Notes under the pieces: model-generated
Databases searched by the model: none
Seen by the model: the letters and a program-made list of their open reading frames with translations, nothing else
What the model was told of the DNA's origin: nothing
Program-made: the position numbers and the translations under genes
In this document: positions 44,477 through 53,100 of the stretch, in pieces
Position numbering within the stretch: the stretch's first letter is position 1
Layout: each line of letters opens with the position of its first letter
Source of the DNA: Calditrichia bacterium
Lineage (GTDB): Bacteria; Calditrichota; Calditrichia; RBG-13-44-9; J075
Direction: 5' to 3'
DNA length: 64,000 nt
NCBI GenBank assembly: GCA_028284445.1
Contig: JANQRS010000068.1
Location: 205,300-269,299 of the forward strand

Positions 44477-46951
44477 TTGCCAGTCTACCAACACATGTTT
44501 CGTAATTCCCGGAATTTAGCGCTGCGTTTTTTGCTGGCTTTTGGCTTCTTTATCGGGCAATCAGGTGCAGCCCAGGACTCTACTGCATTGATCGTCACTC
44601 ATGCGCCAACTCCTGCGCCGGGACATTTTTCTGAAACATCCGATACCTACAAATGGTTTTATGATACCGAAGTAACGAACAGTCTTGATTTTCCGCTTAA
44701 GGTTGTGCGCTTCGGCGTTGCTTTTAAGCAACTCGGTGTATGGTCATTACCAGAAGATCGTGGCGAAGTTTTCGGCAATGCTGAATTTGTTCAGTGGTAT
44801 GGCAGTGGCGATTCATTGCCGGACGGATGGTTGCCGGCGGGTAAGGCCGCAAAGGTCAAAAAGAACTGGAATACCTGGTCGTCTGCTGTTCCCGCACCAA
44901 CGAAATGGGTATATACAGCCGTCGATTCACTTGGCAATGAATATCACGGCTACGGCATCGTTGACTTACAAAGTGTCCCCGTTCCGGTTTTGCATGGGAC
45001 CATGACTTACCCCACCACCTTCCTTTACAAGCAAGGTGACAATCCGGCCTGGGCCGAGAGCGATTTTGACGATAATGATTGGTTCAACATGCCTCTGCCG
45101 GGACGCTACCCTGAATCTTCCTCAGCAGGCATTCGCTGGTTGAGAATTCACCTGGAGGTGGATTCTTCGTTGCATGATATACCGCTGGGCCTTACCGTCA
45201 ATTGTCACGGGGCAACGGAAATATATATAGATGGCATGAAGGTTTTTCAACGTGGTGATATTGGACCGTCGATACAGGGAGAATTGCCGGTGTCGAGGAT
45301 TGAATATCCCAAGCCAACCGTCGTTACCTTTCGTAAACCGGAGAATGCTTCCGGGCAAAGTTATTCGCATGTGCTGGCCATTCGCCATTCCACTTATTTC
45401 CTCGAGGGCGCAGAGTGGTCGGGCAAAACGCCGGATATTAATTTCATTTTTGGTGATTATCAGGTGATGAGTGATGGCTATGTGGAATTGATCCGTAAAA
45501 TCTCCTTTCATCAAATGCTCCTGATGGGGATTTTCCTGGCTTTTGCTTTAATCCATTTGCTCCTCTATGTTTATTATCCAGCGATAAAGGCGAACCTCTA
45601 CTTTTCTCTGATAAGTTTGGTTGCCAGTCTCTTTGTCTTCACTTTTTTTCAGGACCGCTTCTTTGCCGAAAATGCTTTCCAGGAACTTTGGTTGGTGCGA
45701 GTGGGAAATTCCATCGTTGGCGTCCTCCTGCTGGCAATGCTGCGCTTTGTTTATGAGATTACCGGCCAAAAAGTCCCGCGATATTTTCTCTTACTGGTTG
45801 GCGCTGTTGCCATTTTCCTCATTTACAATTGGATGCGACCCTTTCAGGCATCAACGCCCGGACTGATGATTGTGTCCTTGTGTTTGATAGAAATAGTACG
45901 GACCATCATTCGTTTTCGCCGCAAAAAGGCAGAGGGCATACTCGAGGGTGCGTGGATTATTCTGCTTGGCATGGGAGCTGTTTTGCTCGGCGCAACTTAT
46001 CAAATCCTGGTTTTTGATCTGGATCTATTCCCGGCATTTTGGACAATCGCAGATTTCCCGGTGCTGTTTTACTCAGCACTACTGCTTATGCTTTCAATGT
46101 CTGTGGTTTTATCAAAGAACTATGCACGAACAAATACATCTCTTGAGGCAAAGCTCATCGAGGTAAAAGCGCTTTCCGAAAAAAATCTCAGGCAAGAACG
46201 AGAGCGTATGCAGTTGGAAGCTGAAAATCTTCGCAAAACGCGGGAGTTGGAAGAAGCCCGGCAACTCCAGTTGTCGATGTTACCGGAAAGCCCGCCGGTT
46301 TTGCCCGACCTGGAAATTGCCGCCTACATGGCGCCGGCAACGGAAGTGGGGGGAGATTATTATGATTTTAAACTGCATGATGATGGTTCATTAACAATTG
46401 CCATTGGCGATGCCACCGGTCATGGCATGAACGCCGGTACTATGGTTGCCGCTACGAAAGCGCTTTTTAGCTCTTTGGTTGATGAAACAGACCCTGCAAA
46501 TGTATTGAAAAAAAGCACCAGGGCCATCAAGAAGATGGGGTTGAAGAAGATGTTCATGGCCTTGACAGTGGCGAAGGTGAAAGATAAGCAGATGCGGATC
46601 GCCGCGGCCGGTATGCCTTATGCCCTGGTTTATCGGGCAGCTTCCTGCCAAGTCGAAGAAATCGAGCTGAAAGGTATGCCCCTTGGTAGCTTCGTTGACT
46701 TTCCTTATAAAGCAAAAGAATGTAAACTGGATGCCGGTGATATTGTCTTGTTTATGAGTGACGGTCTGGAGGAGATGTTTAATCACGAGGGGGAAATTTT
46801 TGGAGATGACCGCATAAAGCACTGCTTCAAGGAAGCCGTTTTGCATCCAGCCAGTAAGATCATCGATATTTTGAAGGTAGCCGGCAAGGATTGGGCGAAC
46901 GGTCGCGCACAGGAAGATGATGTCACCTTGGTGGTGATAAAGTTGAAGTAG
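44477..46951 (+). CDS. 7TM-DISM receptor with cytoplasmic PP2C/SpoIIE-type serine phosphatase domain
   Basis: Signal peptide; a roughly 300-aa extracellular beta-rich domain; 7 TM helices; a coiled coil; and a PP2C domain with Asp-rich metal motifs (VGGDYYDF, GDATGHG, FMSDG). Confidence 0.8.
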   Translation: MPVYQHMFRNSRNLALRFLLAFGFFIGQSGAAQDSTALIVTHAPTPAPGHFSETSDTYKWFYDTEVTNSLDFPLKVVRFGVAFKQLGVWSLPEDRGEVFGNAEFVQWYGSGDSLPDGWLPAGKAAKVKKNWNTWSSAVPAPTKWVYTAVDSLGNEYHGYGIVDLQSVPVPVLHGTMTYPTTFLYKQGDNPAWAESDFDDNDWFNMPLPGRYPESSSAGIRWLRIHLEVDSSLHDIPLGLTVNCHGATEIYIDGMKVFQRGDIGPSIQGELPVSRIEYPKPTVVTFRKPENASGQSYSHVLAIRHSTYFLEGAEWSGKTPDINFIFGDYQVMSDGYVELIRKISFHQMLLMGIFLAFALIHLLLYVYYPAIKANLYFSLISLVASLFVFTFFQDRFFAENAFQELWLVRVGNSIVGVLLLAMLRFVYEITGQKVPRYFLLLVGAVAIFLIYNWMRPFQASTPGLMIVSLCLIEIVRTIIRFRRKKAEGILEGAWIILLGMGAVLLGATYQILVFDLDLFPAFWTIADFPVLFYSALLLMLSMSVVLSKNYARTNTSLEAKLIEVKALSEKNLRQERERMQLEAENLRKTRELEEARQLQLSMLPESPPVLPDLEIAAYMAPATEVGGDYYDFKLHDDGSLTIAIGDATGHGMNAGTMVAATKALFSSLVDETDPANVLKKSTRAIKKMGLKKMFMALTVAKVKDKQMRIAAAGMPYALVYRAASCQVEEIELKGMPLGSFVDFPYKAKECKLDAGDIVLFMSDGLEEMFNHEGEIFGDDRIKHCFKEAVLHPASKIIDILKVAGKDWANGRAQEDDVTLVVIKLK

Positions 46952-46963
46952 CTGGTTTTCGGC

Positions 46964-49900
46964 TCACACCCAGGCCCGCAAATTACTACAATCATTCTCG
47001 GCATCCTGTACACCGCAGACCCTGCAGCGATTGAGGTCATAATAGAGATCGGTATCTACGGCCTCGCGGCGCTTGATGACCAAAACGATCGGAAAGCTGC
47101 TACGGTCCTCTTTGTTAAATGATGGTTGGTCTGCGAGATCATCATGGCGCTTTCTTTTTTCATCCATCCAGTAAAATTGATAGAGCGGTTCGCTTGTTTC
47201 CCGGTTCATAAATTGACATAAGGCCCGGCTGTACTCATACCATTCTCGAAAGGCGTCGAGGTTCCCAATCGGTAGAATGCGAATCAGCCGTATTTCGTGG
47301 CGCGGTACGTCACTTTGGTGCTTCATCGGGCGCTTCTTTTGGAAAAAGCCAAAAAGCCGATTGAGCGTGAAGTAGCTGTTTTGACAGGATGCGTCCTGGA
47401 AATAATCAACATTGAGAACCCAATCATCACTTTCGTCGCCTGAGGGCGAACAATAGGTTGGCTGACCGCGAAACACCAGCTGGTTTAGCACCTGAGAGAT
47501 TTGGCCGGGATGCGTCGCATTGCTGCCGCAACAAAAAATGCGGGCATATGGCGAAGACGGCGTTGGCAACTCTTCGGTCTTCGCCTGGGTCATGCTGCTA
47601 CAACACTGGTAGTTCTGGCTATGCCAAAGCCGCGAATCGCCGGTGCGATTGATTTGCGGATTTAGGCGCAGGTTATTGGCGCCGGCAACAAAATCCTGAT
47701 ATGCTGAAATCCGGCAGTGGGTCATGCCGGGACAGGCATATTTGCCACTTACACCGTTTTCATCCGGATCCATCATTACCTGTTGGAATTCTGTAATGGT
47801 GCTATCCTCACCACATTTGCGGCGAGTGAGCCGATCCAGTACTTCCGGTACCCCGGGCGGTTGCGGCTTCTCGTGCGTATCAAGCCTGCGCTGCAATGCT
47901 TCCAGCTCGCTGCGTCCATACATCTCGGCGATATCAAGTTCTTTTTCGCGATGTTTACGGCCATCGTTTACGTAGGTGCGCACAATGCGGCTGGTTTCTT
48001 CAGCGACGGCCTCAAAAATCGGTGAATCTTTTCGAACCGGGACCAGAGAAGCGTAACCACTCAGGGCGAATCCGTTGCCTGCCGGGTCGAGGGTGATATT
48101 TCGCAGGTGCCGAAACGAAGGCACGCGAATATCTTTGGCGCTTGCCTGCCAGAGCTGCTCCAGGAGATCCATGGTTGGCGGCACAAAGTCGATGCCGGAT
48201 AGCCGCGCCATGTAATTTGCCAATGCGCCCGGACGATTTGGAAAGCAACTGCTGATTTCCACAAATTGCTTTTCATGATGGGGCAATTTTTGTGGATTGA
48301 TGCCACTGTTCTCGGCACGCGATAGTGTGCGCCTGGCCCCGGCAATAATTTCTTCTGCATCCGACAAAGAGTCGGTGATTGTTTCACCAACCAGCTCACT
48401 AGTATAGTGATCGTAGCGGGCATGTGCCGGATAGCTGGTATCTAATGCCACCAGTTCATTGTGCATCTTGCAAAGGGCATCATAGTAGCGGGAGGCATCA
48501 CCGAGGATCAGACGCTCACGTTCATCGCCCAATGAAGTTGACAAGAGAATCAGCGGCAGGCGAAATTTCGAGGGTTGGCGCGTTTTTAAGCGTTCCAGTG
48601 CCCGTACGCAGCGAGCAAGCAGCAGCGAAGAATGTTCAATTTCATCATGATCGATGACCAGAATTTGCGGCTGATGCTCGCGAATACAAGCCTCGATACT
48701 GATGCTGTCCGCCTGGTTGACGACCCGCGTTGGAGAATTGATGGTGTCAATTTCCGGCACGTCGTCCGCCTCATCGGGGAATCGTCCGCCGGTCACGAAT
48801 GTCTGCGGCCAGGCAAGATCAAAAGTGTCTTTATTGTCTTTATCTTTTAGCACTGGATAGCCGATTCGTTCATCCGGAGCAACTGCTAAAAAGGCAATGT
48901 TTTCCTGAACCAGCGCCGATTTTTTCTCGAAACTACCCGGTAGCGAATTCCAGATATGTTCTACCATATAGTGGTTGGCCTTGTTGTTCCCCACAATCAG
49001 GATCCTCGGCCATTGATTTTTCGGCATCTTTTCCAGGGAGCGGACTTTCAGAATGGCGGTCCAAAGTTTATGGCCAAGGGTTTTTCCCTGGTTATGTTTC
49101 GGATAAACCAGCACGATGCGCCGATGGCGGGCGCGATAAGTAAGGTAAGAAATCTGATCGCTGCGGCTCACGCTCATGATGGTACTGATATTAGTGCGAT
49201 CCGCCTGTTCAAATACTGCCTGCACACTTTCTTCATCCGGCACCATACTGATGATCAATCGCGAACGCTCCAGGTTCACACGCGAGGGCATCGAGGCTTC
49301 GTTTGCCTCTCCAATCACCATTGGCACCAGGATGCGCGATTCCGGGTGTATGATATTGCCGCGCGGATCGCGGCTTTTGTAAATGCGCCGATGGGTGCTG
49401 GCCACGCCATATTCCCCAAGCGTCTGGTTTTCCCCAGCGTAGATCAGCTCGTCGCGGCGACGCTCAACAATCACCGCGTGGCTAGAGAGCATTTCAATGC
49501 GAATATCGGGAGTCACTACTTCCAGAAAATAGTCCCCGTTTTTCCCGCTGAGCATCTGATTGACTTCCCTTTCCACCACGCGCTGCCCGAGGCTGCCAAA
49601 TCCCAGGAAAACGATGTGCCCTTGCACCATCATCAATTGGGTGGAGAGTCGTTTGTTGAAGTAATCTGCGAAAGTAACATCCGGATTGATCGCGGAAATT
49701 ACCAGATTGCTGAACCAGGCGAAGAAGACCCCAATGGCCAGGATGATCTGATCCGCTTCTGTAAGGGTATCCAGCATCTGATATTGATCGACGGATACAA
49801 ATACAATAGGGGTAAAGAGGAAGATAAAGGTCAGCACCAGGCCCCCAGGCACCAGCACCGGTTTGTTCAGGAGGAGGGCGAGGGCAAAGTGCCGGAGATA

Positions 49901-50686
49901 TTTGTAGGCATTCTGAATGATGCCGCGAACATCTCTTTCATGAAAGGTAACCGGAATCAGAATGGTGCTCATTAATCGATTGCCAAGACATCCCCAAAGG
50001 AAGAACACCAGTGCCGTAAGGGTTGCGCAGCACCACCAGGCCATCTTTTTCATCTCGAAAACAACATCGGTTTCCTGACCCGTCGGCAAGATAAAAATCG
50101 TTTCCGGCCGCCAGAGGAATTGATTCTGCCCGAGAATGCTCAGGAACCACAGTTCGATAAAAATGATGCCCAGCAGGATAATGAAGAGGGTTAGTGAATC
50201 AAACCAAAGCCAGCGATTGGGACGATTGCGGGATTGCGGTGCTTCCGCTGCGCGAATATCACGGAAGGCGCTGCGGTATAGCTTGAAAATTGACAAAATG
50301 AGGTAGCCCAGGCAGAATGCGGCTGCTAAAAAGCAGTAGATATAAAAATAGGTGGTAGCGGATTCTGTTTTGGAAAGGAAGTCGACAATCAGGTAGTGCG
50401 GAAAGAGTGCGACGATTAGCAGAATCAGCAGGGTGTTACGTGAATAGATCAGGGCATTTTCCAGCCCGGCCGGCCAATTTTTGATTGCCATCCAGGCCGG
50501 TATCCACAGTAGTGCCAGGAAGCCCATACAGAAGAGCAGGTGAGCAACGCCGGTCAGCACGTAGTGCCGCACCTGGATATCATCGAAAAGAACCACAGCG
50601 CAGACAGTGGATACGAGGGTGGTCGTCAGGCTTGGCAATAAGATCAGGTAGAGAAAGAAGCGGCGGATATCGCCTTTTTCCCGCAA
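46964..50686 (-). CDS. Very large (1240 aa) polytopic membrane protein with cytoplasmic Rossmann/RCK-like and Cys-rich regions, function unknown
   Basis: Uninterrupted 3.7-kb ORF. About 350 aa of TM helices at the N-terminus, then a GxGxxG segment (HIVFLGFGSLGQRVV), a long cytoplasmic region and a Cys-rich C-terminal region. I recognise no family for it. Confidence 0.6.
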   Translation of the reverse strand: MREKGDIRRFFLYLILLPSLTTTLVSTVCAVVLFDDIQVRHYVLTGVAHLLFCMGFLALLWIPAWMAIKNWPAGLENALIYSRNTLLILLIVALFPHYLIVDFLSKTESATTYFYIYCFLAAAFCLGYLILSIFKLYRSAFRDIRAAEAPQSRNRPNRWLWFDSLTLFIILLGIIFIELWFLSILGQNQFLWRPETIFILPTGQETDVVFEMKKMAWWCCATLTALVFFLWGCLGNRLMSTILIPVTFHERDVRGIIQNAYKYLRHFALALLLNKPVLVPGGLVLTFIFLFTPIVFVSVDQYQMLDTLTEADQIILAIGVFFAWFSNLVISAINPDVTFADYFNKRLSTQLMMVQGHIVFLGFGSLGQRVVEREVNQMLSGKNGDYFLEVVTPDIRIEMLSSHAVIVERRRDELIYAGENQTLGEYGVASTHRRIYKSRDPRGNIIHPESRILVPMVIGEANEASMPSRVNLERSRLIISMVPDEESVQAVFEQADRTNISTIMSVSRSDQISYLTYRARHRRIVLVYPKHNQGKTLGHKLWTAILKVRSLEKMPKNQWPRILIVGNNKANHYMVEHIWNSLPGSFEKKSALVQENIAFLAVAPDERIGYPVLKDKDNKDTFDLAWPQTFVTGGRFPDEADDVPEIDTINSPTRVVNQADSISIEACIREHQPQILVIDHDEIEHSSLLLARCVRALERLKTRQPSKFRLPLILLSTSLGDERERLILGDASRYYDALCKMHNELVALDTSYPAHARYDHYTSELVGETITDSLSDAEEIIAGARRTLSRAENSGINPQKLPHHEKQFVEISSCFPNRPGALANYMARLSGIDFVPPTMDLLEQLWQASAKDIRVPSFRHLRNITLDPAGNGFALSGYASLVPVRKDSPIFEAVAEETSRIVRTYVNDGRKHREKELDIAEMYGRSELEALQRRLDTHEKPQPPGVPEVLDRLTRRKCGEDSTITEFQQVMMDPDENGVSGKYACPGMTHCRISAYQDFVAGANNLRLNPQINRTGDSRLWHSQNYQCCSSMTQAKTEELPTPSSPYARIFCCGSNATHPGQISQVLNQLVFRGQPTYCSPSGDESDDWVLNVDYFQDASCQNSYFTLNRLFGFFQKKRPMKHQSDVPRHEIRLIRILPIGNLDAFREWYEYSRALCQFMNRETSEPLYQFYWMDEKRKRHDDLADQPSFNKEDRSSFPIVLVIKRREAVDTDLYYDLNRCRVCGVQDAENDCSNLRAWV

Positions 50687-50836
50687 TGGATATTGAAAAT
50701 CAGCGCTGATGCTTCACTCCTTCCTGGTGGTCTTGGGTATTAATATATCAAATGCTGTTGATTTTCGCACATGCCTTCGCTGATCGGTGTGTGTCTTTAT
50801 CTTTCCGCTCGTAGAGCACAATTCTGAATTTTTTCA

Positions 50837-50990
50837 AAACCTTTCGACACGGATTTCCACGGATGAACACCGATTCCGACAGATGATAGATAAGAAAAAA
50901 AGCTCTAAATGCTTGACAGGATCAACATGATTGACATGATAAGGATTCCCAAGCTTAACTACATCCTGTTGATCATGTAAATCCTGTCAA
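50837..50990. repeat. Composite repeat copy A: 4x heptamer array (CACGGAT/CACCGAT/GACAGAT, 10-bp period) + 25-bp palindrome
   Basis: Heptamer array ACACGGATTTCCACGGATGAACACCGATTCCGACAGATGATAG at about 50845-50890. Palindrome arms GACAGGATCAACATGATTG and ATCCTGTTGATCATGTAAATCCTGTC. About 78% identical to copy B. Confidence 0.6.
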
Positions 50991-51387
50991 AGTTCTCTTT
51001 AGAGAGGGCATGTTTTGCCGTAACCTTGTTAACGCGGTTGTCAGAAAGTGGTGTAAACAAAGTTGCCAATTGTCGAATTTGTCGAATCGATTTCTCTTCC
51101 TGCATACCATTCTTCCCAATTTTGCTTTTTGTGTTTTAAGTTATTTGTAAACAGTGGTTTGTGATCTTGTTGATTTGCGTTTTTTTGCGGCGTTTGTTGC
51201 TTTTGCGGCATTTGGCACCGGCGCAGGTATTCAAATTGCAGTAAGAACTGGCAACGAGGCATGATAGTGCTGAGGGAAAATATGAGGCATGTAATTTGAG
51301 GACGAATGTCTCGTGAAATTGTCAACACGATGGAGTGAGAACAACTAAATAGACCGTTTTCACTGATATTTGAGAAGGAGGATTCTC

Positions 51388-52515
51388 ATGATACGGCAGC
51401 TAAACTGGATGTTAAGCGGATTTCTGATGATGGCCTTTGTAATAGGCATGACGACAAATGGATTGTCCCAATCAGATCGTCCGGCGACGAAGCGCTCACG
51501 CGTTGAGTCCAAAGAAGATAAAAAGAAAACCACTCGCGGCCGATCCGTCATCGGCGCCAAGAAGCGCAGCAATGATGATGACAAGAAGGTCGTGCGACGA
51601 AATAGCGGCAACCGCAATAGCGAAGCCCGCCAGCGAAACGATCGCAGTCGAAATCGCGATACAAGACAGCGAAACGAGCGCCGCCGCAATAATGATGGCG
51701 TTCGCAATGATAAGCCGCAGCAGCGAAATGATCGCCACACCCGCTATGACCGCAATCAGGATCGGCGTGACAATCGCGATGCGCGTAATAATAGAAACAA
51801 CCGTGGACGTGACAACCGCAATGGTCGCATAGATCGTAATCGTCATCGCGATCACAATCGTGGCAAAAACCATGATCGCAGCCGTCGCTTCGAAAACCGT
51901 CATCATGATCGGGACCGCGGATATCATCACTACGATTGGCGCAAGGATTATCGTCGCTATCGCTGGAACCATCCGTACTGGAAGAAGCATCATCGTCCGC
52001 GGAAGAAGTATTACTATCGCTATGGTTGGTCGCCGTTTTTTAGCCTGACCTTGCGTCCCAGTATCCGCTTCAGCACCTATACAAGGCCGTTGATCAGAAG
52101 CAACAGTCATATCGTTTACACCAAAGAATATGATAGCTATGATTACGTGCCGGGTGATCCGATTGGATACGCAGTACACATAAGCTTTAACGGCCGGGTC
52201 CGTGTATACGATCGATACTACGATCAATCACCGGAGCTGGTAGATGAATACTATATCTCACACCGCAAGTTGCGTCGTCTTGAACGCATCCTGGATCGCG
52301 GTCGCTACTACGACTACGAACATTGCCTGCTGGACGAATATGGCGATGATGATCATCCGGGATACGCAACAATAGGTTACCGTACCTCTCGATATCGTCC
52401 GATGCGCACGGTATCACTCAACTTGTCCGCACCCCGGCGTCACCAACCGGAGTATTTTGTGGACTTCAATGAAGAAATCGAGGAAATGTTATACGACCGT
52501 GGTTTCTTTCAGTAA
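51388..52515 (+). CDS. Membrane-anchored, extremely Arg/Asn/Asp-rich low-complexity protein
   Basis: GAGAAGGAGG lies 7 nt upstream of the ATG. N-terminal hydrophobic anchor (LSGFLMMAFVIGMTT). About 200 aa of RNDR/RNER/DRNR low-complexity sequence. The C-terminal roughly 140 aa are non-repetitive and Tyr/Arg/Asp-rich. A stem-loop lies just downstream. Both the opposite strand and a second frame are also open, as expected for repetitive DNA. Confidence 0.5.
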   Translation: MIRQLNWMLSGFLMMAFVIGMTTNGLSQSDRPATKRSRVESKEDKKKTTRGRSVIGAKKRSNDDDKKVVRRNSGNRNSEARQRNDRSRNRDTRQRNERRRNNDGVRNDKPQQRNDRHTRYDRNQDRRDNRDARNNRNNRGRDNRNGRIDRNRHRDHNRGKNHDRSRRFENRHHDRDRGYHHYDWRKDYRRYRWNHPYWKKHHRPRKKYYYRYGWSPFFSLTLRPSIRFSTYTRPLIRSNSHIVYTKEYDSYDYVPGDPIGYAVHISFNGRVRVYDRYYDQSPELVDEYYISHRKLRRLERILDRGRYYDYEHCLLDEYGDDDHPGYATIGYRTSRYRPMRTVSLNLSAPRRHQPEYFVDFNEEIEEMLYDRGFFQ

Positions 52516-52945: not shown

Positions 52946-53100
52946 AAAACCCTTCGACACAGATGCACACGGATTTTCACAGATTTACACAGATGATAGG
53001 CAAGAAGGAAGAAAAAGAATTTCGACAGGATCAACAGGATTGTCATGATAAAGACCTCCGATCAGAATTTTATCCTGTTGATCCTGTAAATCCTGTCAAT
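52946..53100. repeat. Composite repeat copy B, same orientation as A
   Basis: Heptamer array ACACAGATGCACACGGATTTTCACAGATTTACACAGATGATAG at about 52957-52997. Palindrome arms GACAGGATCAACAGGATTG and ATCCTGTTGATCCTGTAAATCCTGTC. Confidence 0.6.

Follow-up and report, generated by a model that had tools for sequence, protein, structure and literature searches.

The window analysed here is a stretch of 64,000 nucleotides (nt) from the forward strand of contig JANQRS010000068.1 (positions 205,300 to 269,299; assembly GCA_028284445.1, a Calditrichia bacterium). Its longest open reading frame (ORF), on the minus strand, specifies a protein of 1240 amino acids (aa) with an N-terminal membrane domain, a predicted cytoplasmic pair of domains of the RCK/KTN type and a cysteine-rich C-terminal module. 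The features recognised in this gene are listed below, with the basis for each in parentheses.

46964..50686, minus strand: the whole ORF, from a TTG codon to a TGA stop, 1240 aa; the window copy of an unnamed family
49685..50686, minus strand: membrane domain, aa 1-334, eight transmembrane (TM) helices (hydropathy and two AlphaFold2 (AF2) models)
49685..49756, minus strand: TM8, aa 311-334, candidate pore-lining or gating helix (alignments)
49619..49684, minus strand: acidic linker helix, aa 335-356, 22 aa, PDxTFxxYF...Q (AF2 and alignments)
49031..49618, minus strand: RCK1, a KTN N-lobe, aa 357-552 (AF2, Foldseek and profiles)
48302..49030, minus strand: predicted RCK2, Rossmann-like alpha/beta, aa 553-795 (AF2 fold and Foldseek)
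46967..48289, minus strand: C-terminal module, aa 800-1240, beta-rich, 440 aa (alignments and AF2)

An initial annotation, made from the sequence alone, had described this ORF as uninterrupted and as the largest gene of the window, and both its coordinates and its frame were reproduced. It had also raised the question of assembly frameshifts that might fuse separate genes. None was found. The locus is present in the Logan assembly of SRR20820731 (L007), possibly built from the same reads as the metagenome-assembled genome (MAG), and is 100% identical in the ORF itself, in the 700 nt upstream of it and in the 2.6 kb downstream. Approximately 40 homologues (1189-1490 aa, 26-50% identity) are colinear with the window protein from end to end; the closest, P0002, is partial and 81-82% identical. 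All 34 residues that are fully invariant in a core alignment of 41 sequences, with identity down to 26%, are kept in the window copy. Because the second assembly is identical and, more decisively, because of the colinear homologues, we consider the gene to be genuine and not an artificial fusion.

As the initial annotation had supposed, the protein belongs to no characterised family: Pfam, NCBIfam and PADLOC give no family above threshold, and sequence searches of the PDB with the single protein and with a full-family profile gave no match. Applied to the homologues, to the distant tiers of the superfamily and to the isolated C-terminal module, the same three libraries returned only sub-threshold TrkA_N matches and noise. 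A clear match to a known transporter family was also looked for, with a negative outcome (no Pfam match to Ion_trans, Ion_trans_2, Na_H_Exchanger or any other such family). The only homologue to match DUF7937 (PF25592) is P0014, at 27.7 bits against a gathering threshold of 31 bits; the window protein has no Pfam match to it, and literature searches on DUF7937 and on RCK proteins without a K+ pore yielded no description of the family.

Searching an index of 5.8 billion proteins gave 26 clusters, every one at E<1e-227 and none weaker; a profile query of the same proteins gave the same 26. All are named 'hypothetical', and the organisms given for them are Calditrichaceae, Calditrichia and candidate division KSB1. 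When one genome per GTDB species was scanned, the core family was found in 15 of approximately 185,000 species, nearly all of them Calditrichota or KSB1 MAGs and none a cultured isolate. With a profile covering aa 202-1240, an exhaustive HMMER search through 1.84 billion representatives identified 153 proteins (approximately 150 clusters at 50% identity) that fall into three tiers. The first is the core family, with full-length matches (E<1e-176). The distant tier contains proteins of 1000-1600 aa that match profile positions ~60-640 only (TM7/TM8, the linker and both Rossmann domains), and the third matches only the C-terminal 250-440 residues and includes free-standing proteins of 350-420 aa. 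One protein, P0012, is named 'succinate dehydrogenase/fumarate reductase cytochrome b subunit' in its JGI record. We have rejected this name, since Pfam at E<=1 gives no such domain; it is likely to be a spurious automatic transfer.

The initial annotation had reported an RCK-like dinucleotide motif after the membrane helices. The module is indeed RCK/KTN-like, and is probably one of a tandem RCK pair whose predicted second member had gone unnoticed. Three lines of evidence identify the GxGxxG module as an RCK/KTN domain: Foldseek, profile matches in the PDB, and a distant relative that passes the Pfam threshold. The full-length AF2 model was obtained using the NCBI gene model P0001 together with 25 homologues (best model: pLDDT 75.8, pTM 0.75). 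In a Foldseek comparison of this model with the PDB, the top match is GsuK (E=9e-6, 500-690 aligned columns); below it rank the gating rings of LjCASTOR and TrkA, then KefC, KtrA and BK/Slo. Probability is 1.0 for GsuK, CASTOR, TrkA and KtrA, and a single-domain match, to the TrkA-N domain of YbaL, has a TM-score of 0.71. The RCK1 profile A7, derived from 11 diverse superfamily members, finds in the PDB 1id1 (the RCK domain of Escherichia coli Kch, 7.6e-4) and 3fwz (YbaL, 5e-3) below E=0.01, as well as the TM1088A TrkA structures 3l4b and 2g1u (~1e-3); nothing else lies below E=0.9. The distant relative is P0061 (E=1.5e-48 to the family profile), which scores 28.5 bits with Pfam TrkA_N against a threshold of 23.8; a second protein, P0058, reaches 23.5 bits.

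RCK1 opens with HIVFLGFGSLGQRVV (aa 357-371), within which GFGSLG (aa 362-367) lies at 49586-49603; TPD (aa 392-394, 49505-49513) follows beta-2. In this nucleotide motif G362, G364, G367, R369 and P393 are invariant in the core alignment and D394 is present in 39 of the 41 sequences. The order of strands and helices in the AF2 model is that of a Rossmann beta-alpha-beta unit, with the acidic residue ending beta-2. An intact GxGxxG...D arrangement is the classic dinucleotide or adenine-nucleotide site of KTN domains (PMC3510474). A beta-hairpin insertion at approximately aa 395-455 is specific to the family. In the predicted RCK2 the glycine motif is degenerate (VGNNKAN, 48974-48994), and the Foldseek alignments span both RCKs of their targets.

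The membrane domain has about eight TM helices by hydropathy and in two AF2 models, rather than the ten or so first estimated, and an N-in/C-in topology by the positive-inside rule. The linker helix joins TM8 directly to beta-1 of RCK1 and is strongly conserved (D336 in 39/41, T338 in 40/41 and F343 in 41/41 core sequences). Within the membrane Y263, D312 and W324 are invariant (41/41), while E178 (36/41), H49 (34/41) and H97 (26/41, with Tyr in a further 8) are near-invariant. The topology places H49, H97, E178 and D312 in the outer half of the membrane, D312 being at the outer end of TM8. On the cytoplasmic face, beside RCK1, are E76, the PDxTF linker and PVTFHERD (aa 245-252, 49931-49954), whose residues are conserved in 25-31 of the 41 sequences.

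All eight helices are conserved within the core family. Across the 153 superfamily representatives, conservation is confined to TM8 (with or without TM7), the acidic linker and RCK1-RCK2, and the number of upstream helices varies from ~3 to 12. The TM8 consensus in the superfamily is D/N...W-x-x-P, and matches in the distant tier start at profile positions ~113-117, equivalent to aa ~314-318. TM7 and TM8 are only ~12 residues apart. No internal repeat is detectable in the TM domain using hhalign on TM sub-alignments (probability <=2%). An inverted-repeat transporter was rejected on this result, which is not conclusive since such repeats are often invisible in sequence. The homologue alignment also contains two hypervariable insertion sites (columns ~300-440 and 615-695). 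The first is the periplasmic TM5-TM6 loop, of ~25 to ~150 aa, and the second is the RCK1 loop between helix A and beta-2, with insertions of up to ~80 aa in P0018, P0021 and P0022. The window copy is minimal at both.

In the C-terminal module nine cysteines are invariant in the 41 sequences (C814, C985, C991, C1028, C1053, C1101, C1221, C1224 and C1233). The cysteine-rich C-terminus of some 250 aa that had been described at first is borne out by composition, the last 260 aa containing 4.6% Cys and including CCSS, FCCG and CRVCGV...C, but the invariant residues are spread over 420 aa. Their spacing is C-x5-C, C-x2-C-x8-C and isolated Cys. A metal centre calls for at least three to four conserved Cys, a number that the nine invariant residues provide, and judging from sequence it is most likely that they hold metal centres, either Zn or iron-sulphur (Fe-S). 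There is no Fer4 or zinc-ribbon Pfam match in the window protein or in the module sequences, and the module itself has no Pfam, PDB or Foldseek match. It includes two strand-xxPG-helix units (aa 805-905 and 1045-1165) that are similar to each other (hhalign E=1e-4, probability 57%). An ACT domain was considered and rejected: Pfam at E<=10 finds no ACT family in 18 module sequences and no ACT structure is among the Foldseek matches, the likeness being limited to a strand-(D/N)xPG-helix motif that recalls the ACT ligand loop.

The initial annotation had missed that the module is autonomous, existing also as a separate protein. Window aa ~805-1240 align colinearly with the free-standing proteins of 350-420 aa, and fused and free-standing modules share invariant C985 and C1221 and near-invariant C1053, as well as G1061, G1113, P1139, W1149, Y1152 and W1239. 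Four split loci were examined, from about three independent lineages: one in a Candidatus Kuenenia sp. MAG (L008) and three metagenomic (L009, L025 and L026). In all four a TM-RCK1-RCK2 gene ends 7-12 nt upstream of the gene for the free-standing module. The upstream genes specify polytopic proteins with GxGxxG that align to window aa ~260-756 (TM7-8, linker, RCK1 and RCK2; hhalign probability 99.0-99.3%, E 7e-21 to 3.5e-18). This Rosetta-stone relationship sets a domain boundary near aa 795-805 and implies, at the level of gene organisation, that the module would act in a complex with the TM-RCK part. A 183-aa Cys-rich soluble protein (...CCENCNLRGREKPCAAKDLW...) is found just upstream of the split TM-RCK gene at L009:2151-2702 and L025:1679-2230. 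It is nearly identical in these two closely related loci, may be a third component of the split system, and is not significantly similar to the window protein (hhalign probability 2.4%).

To judge from the surrounding sequence, the TTG listed as the start is unlikely to be the ancestral one. It is the Leu codon of (E/Q)YPLRxxxD, a motif conserved in the family near the N-terminus, and DFQYP is encoded directly 5' of it. One further feature lies here:

50687..50770, minus strand: probable remnant of the ancestral N-terminal tail (comparison with P0002)

It consists, in order, of a GTG (50768-50770), 17 codons, an in-frame TGA (50714-50716) and SISADFQYP, after which comes the TTG. The TGA is nine codons 5' of the TTG and is carried by both assemblies. 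A start at the GTG would give a tail of the same length as that of P0002, which reads ...KEPTINTEFQYPLREKGD where the window has ...KE*SISADFQYPLREKGD. The poorly conserved cytoplasmic tail is therefore interrupted in this genome, and the interruption might be explained by a nonsense mutation followed by restart, by a non-canonical start or by recoding. Translation probably restarts either at the TTG or at an ATC (50708-50710) placed 6 nt 3' of a Shine-Dalgarno-like run, GGAAGGAG. The NCBI gene model, P0001 (1175 aa), starts at Met66 (window 50491). It is probably N-terminally truncated and almost certainly too short, since this start removes TM1-TM2, which are conserved in all full-length homologues.

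The best structural match to the window protein, GsuK of Geobacter sulfurreducens (4gx0/4gx1/4gx5), is a multi-ligand-gated K+ channel that binds ADP/NAD+, Ca2+ and Zn2+ (PMC3510474). In both proteins a short linker leads from the last TM helix to the RCKs, of which there are two per chain (the second of them predicted in the window protein), and one RCK has a GxGxxG site. The resemblance stops there: identity is only ~10%, the nucleotide motif is in RCK2 of GsuK and in RCK1 of the window protein, and the P-loop pore of GsuK is formed by two TM helices and carries a TVGFG filter, which the window protein, with its eight TM helices, lacks. It has in addition the 440-aa nine-Cys module and the RCK1 beta-hairpin insertion. 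The TrkA/KtrA rings and the RCK domain of E. coli Kch (4j9v, 3l4b, 5but and 1id1) are the sole solved proteins detectable by sequence profile. They share with RCK1 the KTN N-lobe pattern G-x-G-x-x-G ... (I/V)xGD/E-A ... L, and TrkA matches the prediction for the window protein in carrying two RCK domains in tandem on a single chain. As soluble subunits, TrkA and KtrA dock on a separate TrkH or KtrB, while the RCK pair of the window protein is fused to its own membrane domain and has no detectable TrkA_C lobe.

The predicted fusion of a tandem-RCK ring to a multi-helix membrane domain has a parallel in CASTOR/POLLUX/DMI1 and in BK/Slo (Foldseek: CASTOR 6o7a, E=9e-5; BK and Slo2.2, 9jo4, 5u76 and 6v38, E ~3e-3 to 5e-3). 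From CASTOR it is clear that an RCK ring can also gate a pore without K+ selectivity (PMC6697748). CASTOR, BK and Slo are, however, eukaryotic, keep a P-loop pore domain and have no Cys module, whereas no P-loop is detectable in the window protein. KefC, a CPA2 K+/H+ exchanger, is likewise polytopic with a fused KTN domain (Foldseek E ~1e-3). Its gating is redox- or electrophile-linked, through glutathione adducts. It differs in having the 13-TM Na_H_Exchanger fold and a single KTN domain; the eight-TM window protein has no Pfam match to this fold. An RCK-regulated membrane protein is thus of a known kind, but the libraries and papers searched contain no description of this membrane domain, of the C-terminal module or of the two combined. 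At the sensitivity available, these two domains are new or very remote folds.

We consider it somewhat more probable than the alternatives taken together that the protein provides an RCK-gated ion pathway. The combined analysis is best read as pointing to an ion channel or transporter whose pore is non-canonical and which is gated by a nucleotide and possibly also by metal or redox state, so that 'an atypical channel, transporter or sensor', as the initial annotation had put it, is still the best class of explanation. The protein would reside in the inner membrane, with its cytoplasmic tandem RCK pair attached through the 22-residue linker to the last of eight TM helices. The RCK pairs of several subunits would form a ring beneath the membrane, and an adenine nucleotide or dinucleotide would bind to the intact GxGxxG...D site of RCK1. 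Movement of the ring would then be transmitted through the linker to TM8 and would open or close an ion path in the membrane domain. This path would be other than a P-loop K+ pore; candidate coordinating residues are D312, E178, H49 and H97, and it may be speculated that such a His/His/Glu/Asp set in the outer leaflet suits a cation, which might be a divalent or transition metal. The C-terminal module would be a detachable second sensor docked on the RCK part and supplying a metal or redox input. We infer the ring, the nucleotide gating and the coupling to TM8 because these are established for MthK, GsuK, BK/Slo, Kch, CASTOR, TrkA/KtrA and KefC; we also infer ion conduction, metal binding and the identity of the ligand.

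A channel-like pore around TM8 is favoured because TM8 is the only membrane element conserved throughout the superfamily and because tandem RCKs typically build four-fold rings. Conservation of TM8, linker and RCK with variable upstream helices would fit a small pore-forming unit that oligomerises. The 22-aa linker between TM8 and beta-1 resembles the TM2-RCK linkers of GsuK and MthK (PMC3510474).

Several observations weigh against an RCK-gated pathway of this sort. The TM-scores to tandem-RCK rings are 0.3-0.5 (target-normalised) with a root-mean-square deviation of 10-13 Å, and the remaining four of the five full-length AF2 models have a pLDDT of only 52-57. The window protein itself scores 11.6 bits with TrkA_N (PF02254; E=0.36), below the 23.8-bit threshold, and the core homologues score 12-14 bits. 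Since it fails and P0061 passes, membership in this Pfam family is by transitive homology only. RCK2 has no sequence similarity to RCK1 or TrkA_N; its assignment therefore comes from the predicted fold and Foldseek, that is, only from structure prediction. Once the RCKs are deleted, the model has no structural relative in the PDB (Foldseek, best E=0.55) and no transporter match better than E=2.4, so that the membrane domain offers no positive sign of a pore. The P-loop selectivity filter, T-x-G-(Y/F)-G-(D/E), occurs in 0 of 168 superfamily proteins, and the spacing of the nine cysteines fits no canonical Fe-S or Zn motif. Finally, a channel is not separable from a transporter, because RCK/KTN domains also regulate carriers, KefC for example. 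Two specific channel types have been rejected: a K+ channel with a P-loop, as the filter motif is absent throughout the superfamily, and a non-P-loop K+ channel of the TMEM175 type, for which a profile match to 5vre (E=0.48) is at the level of chance and which is absent from the top Foldseek matches.

A more specific form of the proposal, which we advance tentatively and as a possibility short of probable, is that the family represents a new class of ligand-gated channel. An oligomeric, non-P-loop pore would be formed by TM7-TM8 hairpins, with a ring of the invariant Asp312 at its outer mouth. The tandem-RCK ring would integrate binding of an adenine nucleotide with the state of the Fe-S or Zn nine-Cys module.

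Among the rival explanations, the one that survives best, although it is unlikely, is an RCK-regulated secondary transporter, a KefC-like carrier in which the eight TM helices operate by alternating access in a monomer or dimer and the RCK pair is a switch of the KTN type. KefC structures (9emb and 8by2) do appear among the Foldseek matches at E ~1e-3, but with TM-scores of only 0.08-0.17. The membrane-embedded E178, H49, H97 and D312 resemble a substrate- or proton-binding site, and the conservation of all eight helices in the core family is as expected of a carrier; the upstream helices are not, however, conserved across the superfamily. Neither an internal or inverted repeat (hhalign <=2%) nor a Pfam transporter family has been found, and tandem RCKs have so far been characteristic of ring-gated channels and of TrkA.

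It is distinctly unlikely that the protein is instead a membrane NAD(P)-linked redox or electron-transfer protein, with NAD(P)H as its substrate, an Fe-S module and membrane His residues ligating haem or metal. Such a function would account for the intact dinucleotide motif, the nine invariant Cys and the near-invariant H49 and H97 within TM helices, and it would suit the anaerobic host lineages. Lower-ranked Foldseek matches include malic enzyme and a protein of the phosphoglycerate-dehydrogenase type, but the best structural match and all of those at sequence level are to RCK/KTN regulatory domains and not to dehydrogenases. Neither a substrate-binding or catalytic domain nor a flavin domain was found, and a CxxCxxCxxxCP motif of the ferredoxin type is likewise missing. 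There is one conserved His per helix, as opposed to the paired His of di-haem cytochromes b, and the JGI cytochrome b label of P0012, which might be cited in favour, is unsupported by Pfam.

We regard as improbable a membrane-anchored sensor or scaffold without transport, in which the TM domain would perceive a cue in the membrane or periplasm and signalling would proceed by protein-protein contacts of the RCK and C-terminal modules. The highly variable periplasmic TM5-TM6 loop, reaching ~150 aa in some homologues, and the detachable C-terminal module would be in keeping with such a role. No known output domain (kinase, cyclase, helix-turn-helix or phosphatase) is present in any member, however, no partner gene other than the split halves is conserved across lineages, and the TM8-linker-RCK1 junction is the most strongly conserved part, a pattern typical of mechanical gating. 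That the gene is an assembly-made fusion or is decaying can be virtually dismissed: the in-frame TGA falls within sequence homologous to the coding N-terminus of P0002 and split-gene versions exist elsewhere, but the interruption is confined to the poorly conserved tail, the 3.7-kb frame is unbroken and identical in two assemblies, some 40 homologues are colinear and fused, and all 34 invariant core residues are intact.

The following features flank the gene.

44477-46951, plus strand: a gene for a protein with an extracytoplasmic region, seven hydrophobic helices, a coiled coil and a SpoIIE/PP2C domain (Pfam)
50915-50990 and 53024-53099: two copies, on the same strand, of an intergenic element of ~76 nt

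The first of these is convergent with the 1240-aa ORF, and the 12-bp distance between the two stops reported earlier is exact. Its earlier description as a 7TM-DISM PP2C protein holds for the seven hydrophobic helices and the SpoIIE domain, the only Pfam match (E=7.5e-34), but not for 7TMR-DISM, which Pfam does not find at E<=1. Its N-terminal extracytoplasmic region is large, and NCBIfam gives weak matches to SiaA/RssB-like phosphatases. Flanking ORFs were compared by all-vs-all BLASTP at 13 loci. Synteny exists only among near-identical lineages and no neighbour is shared across lineages. A B12-binding radical-SAM gene is located downstream in two different lineages, immediately in L004 (12335-14173) and ~4 kb away in L020 (8181-9692). 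It is the sole cross-lineage neighbour apart from a generic SpoIIE-family match, and is probably coincidental. The PP2C neighbour and the B12/radical-SAM gene have both been rejected as functional partners on this comparison. No operon partner is conserved, and the gene is autonomous; it follows that the relevance which the initial annotation had implicitly attached to the PP2C neighbour and to the repeat upstream is not supported, both being incidental.

The nearer repeat copy, previously placed 150 bp upstream, in fact lies 229-304 nt 5' of the TTG. A copy consists of two arms of 28 nt, which are 93-96% identical between the copies, on either side of a variable spacer of ~20 nt; the arms are arrays of 9-mers, (C/T)(A/G)ACA(G/T)GAT, arranged as an imperfect palindrome (TGACAGGATCAACATGATTGACATGAT ... 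ATCCTGTTGATCATGTAAATCCTGTCA). The element may serve as an operator or iteron array, or may be a small mobile repeat, and an Rfam scan of the upstream intergenic region gave no match near threshold. An ORF of 381 aa (51370-52515, plus strand), divergent from the large gene, has a signal- or TM-like N-terminus and an extremely Arg/Asp/Asn/His-rich low-complexity region with RNDRxRNR repeats. It has no Pfam or NCBIfam match and is overlapped on the opposite strand by an ORF of 243 aa.

No ligand sensor of prokaryotic ion transport is more widespread than the RCK/KTN domain, which, to our knowledge, has so far been known to control P-loop K+ channels and the Trk/Ktr and Kef systems. Here a predicted tandem RCK pair is joined to a membrane domain and a Cys-rich module that have no detectable relatives among solved structures. 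Should the membrane domain prove non-conducting, the family would still be a target for domain curation, with two new domains of the Pfam type and a start-site correction for NCBI. The split-gene versions are natural constructs for probing what the C-terminal sensor does. Ion conduction by the membrane domain, if it occurs, would mean a new pore architecture gated by a familiar machine, and would provide a tractable test case for the coupling of RCK rings to membrane domains other than K+ channels. If the family is indeed a new class of ligand-gated channel, it would tie ion flux to redox or metal status in anaerobes, namely Calditrichota, KSB1 and anammox Planctomycetes such as Kuenenia.

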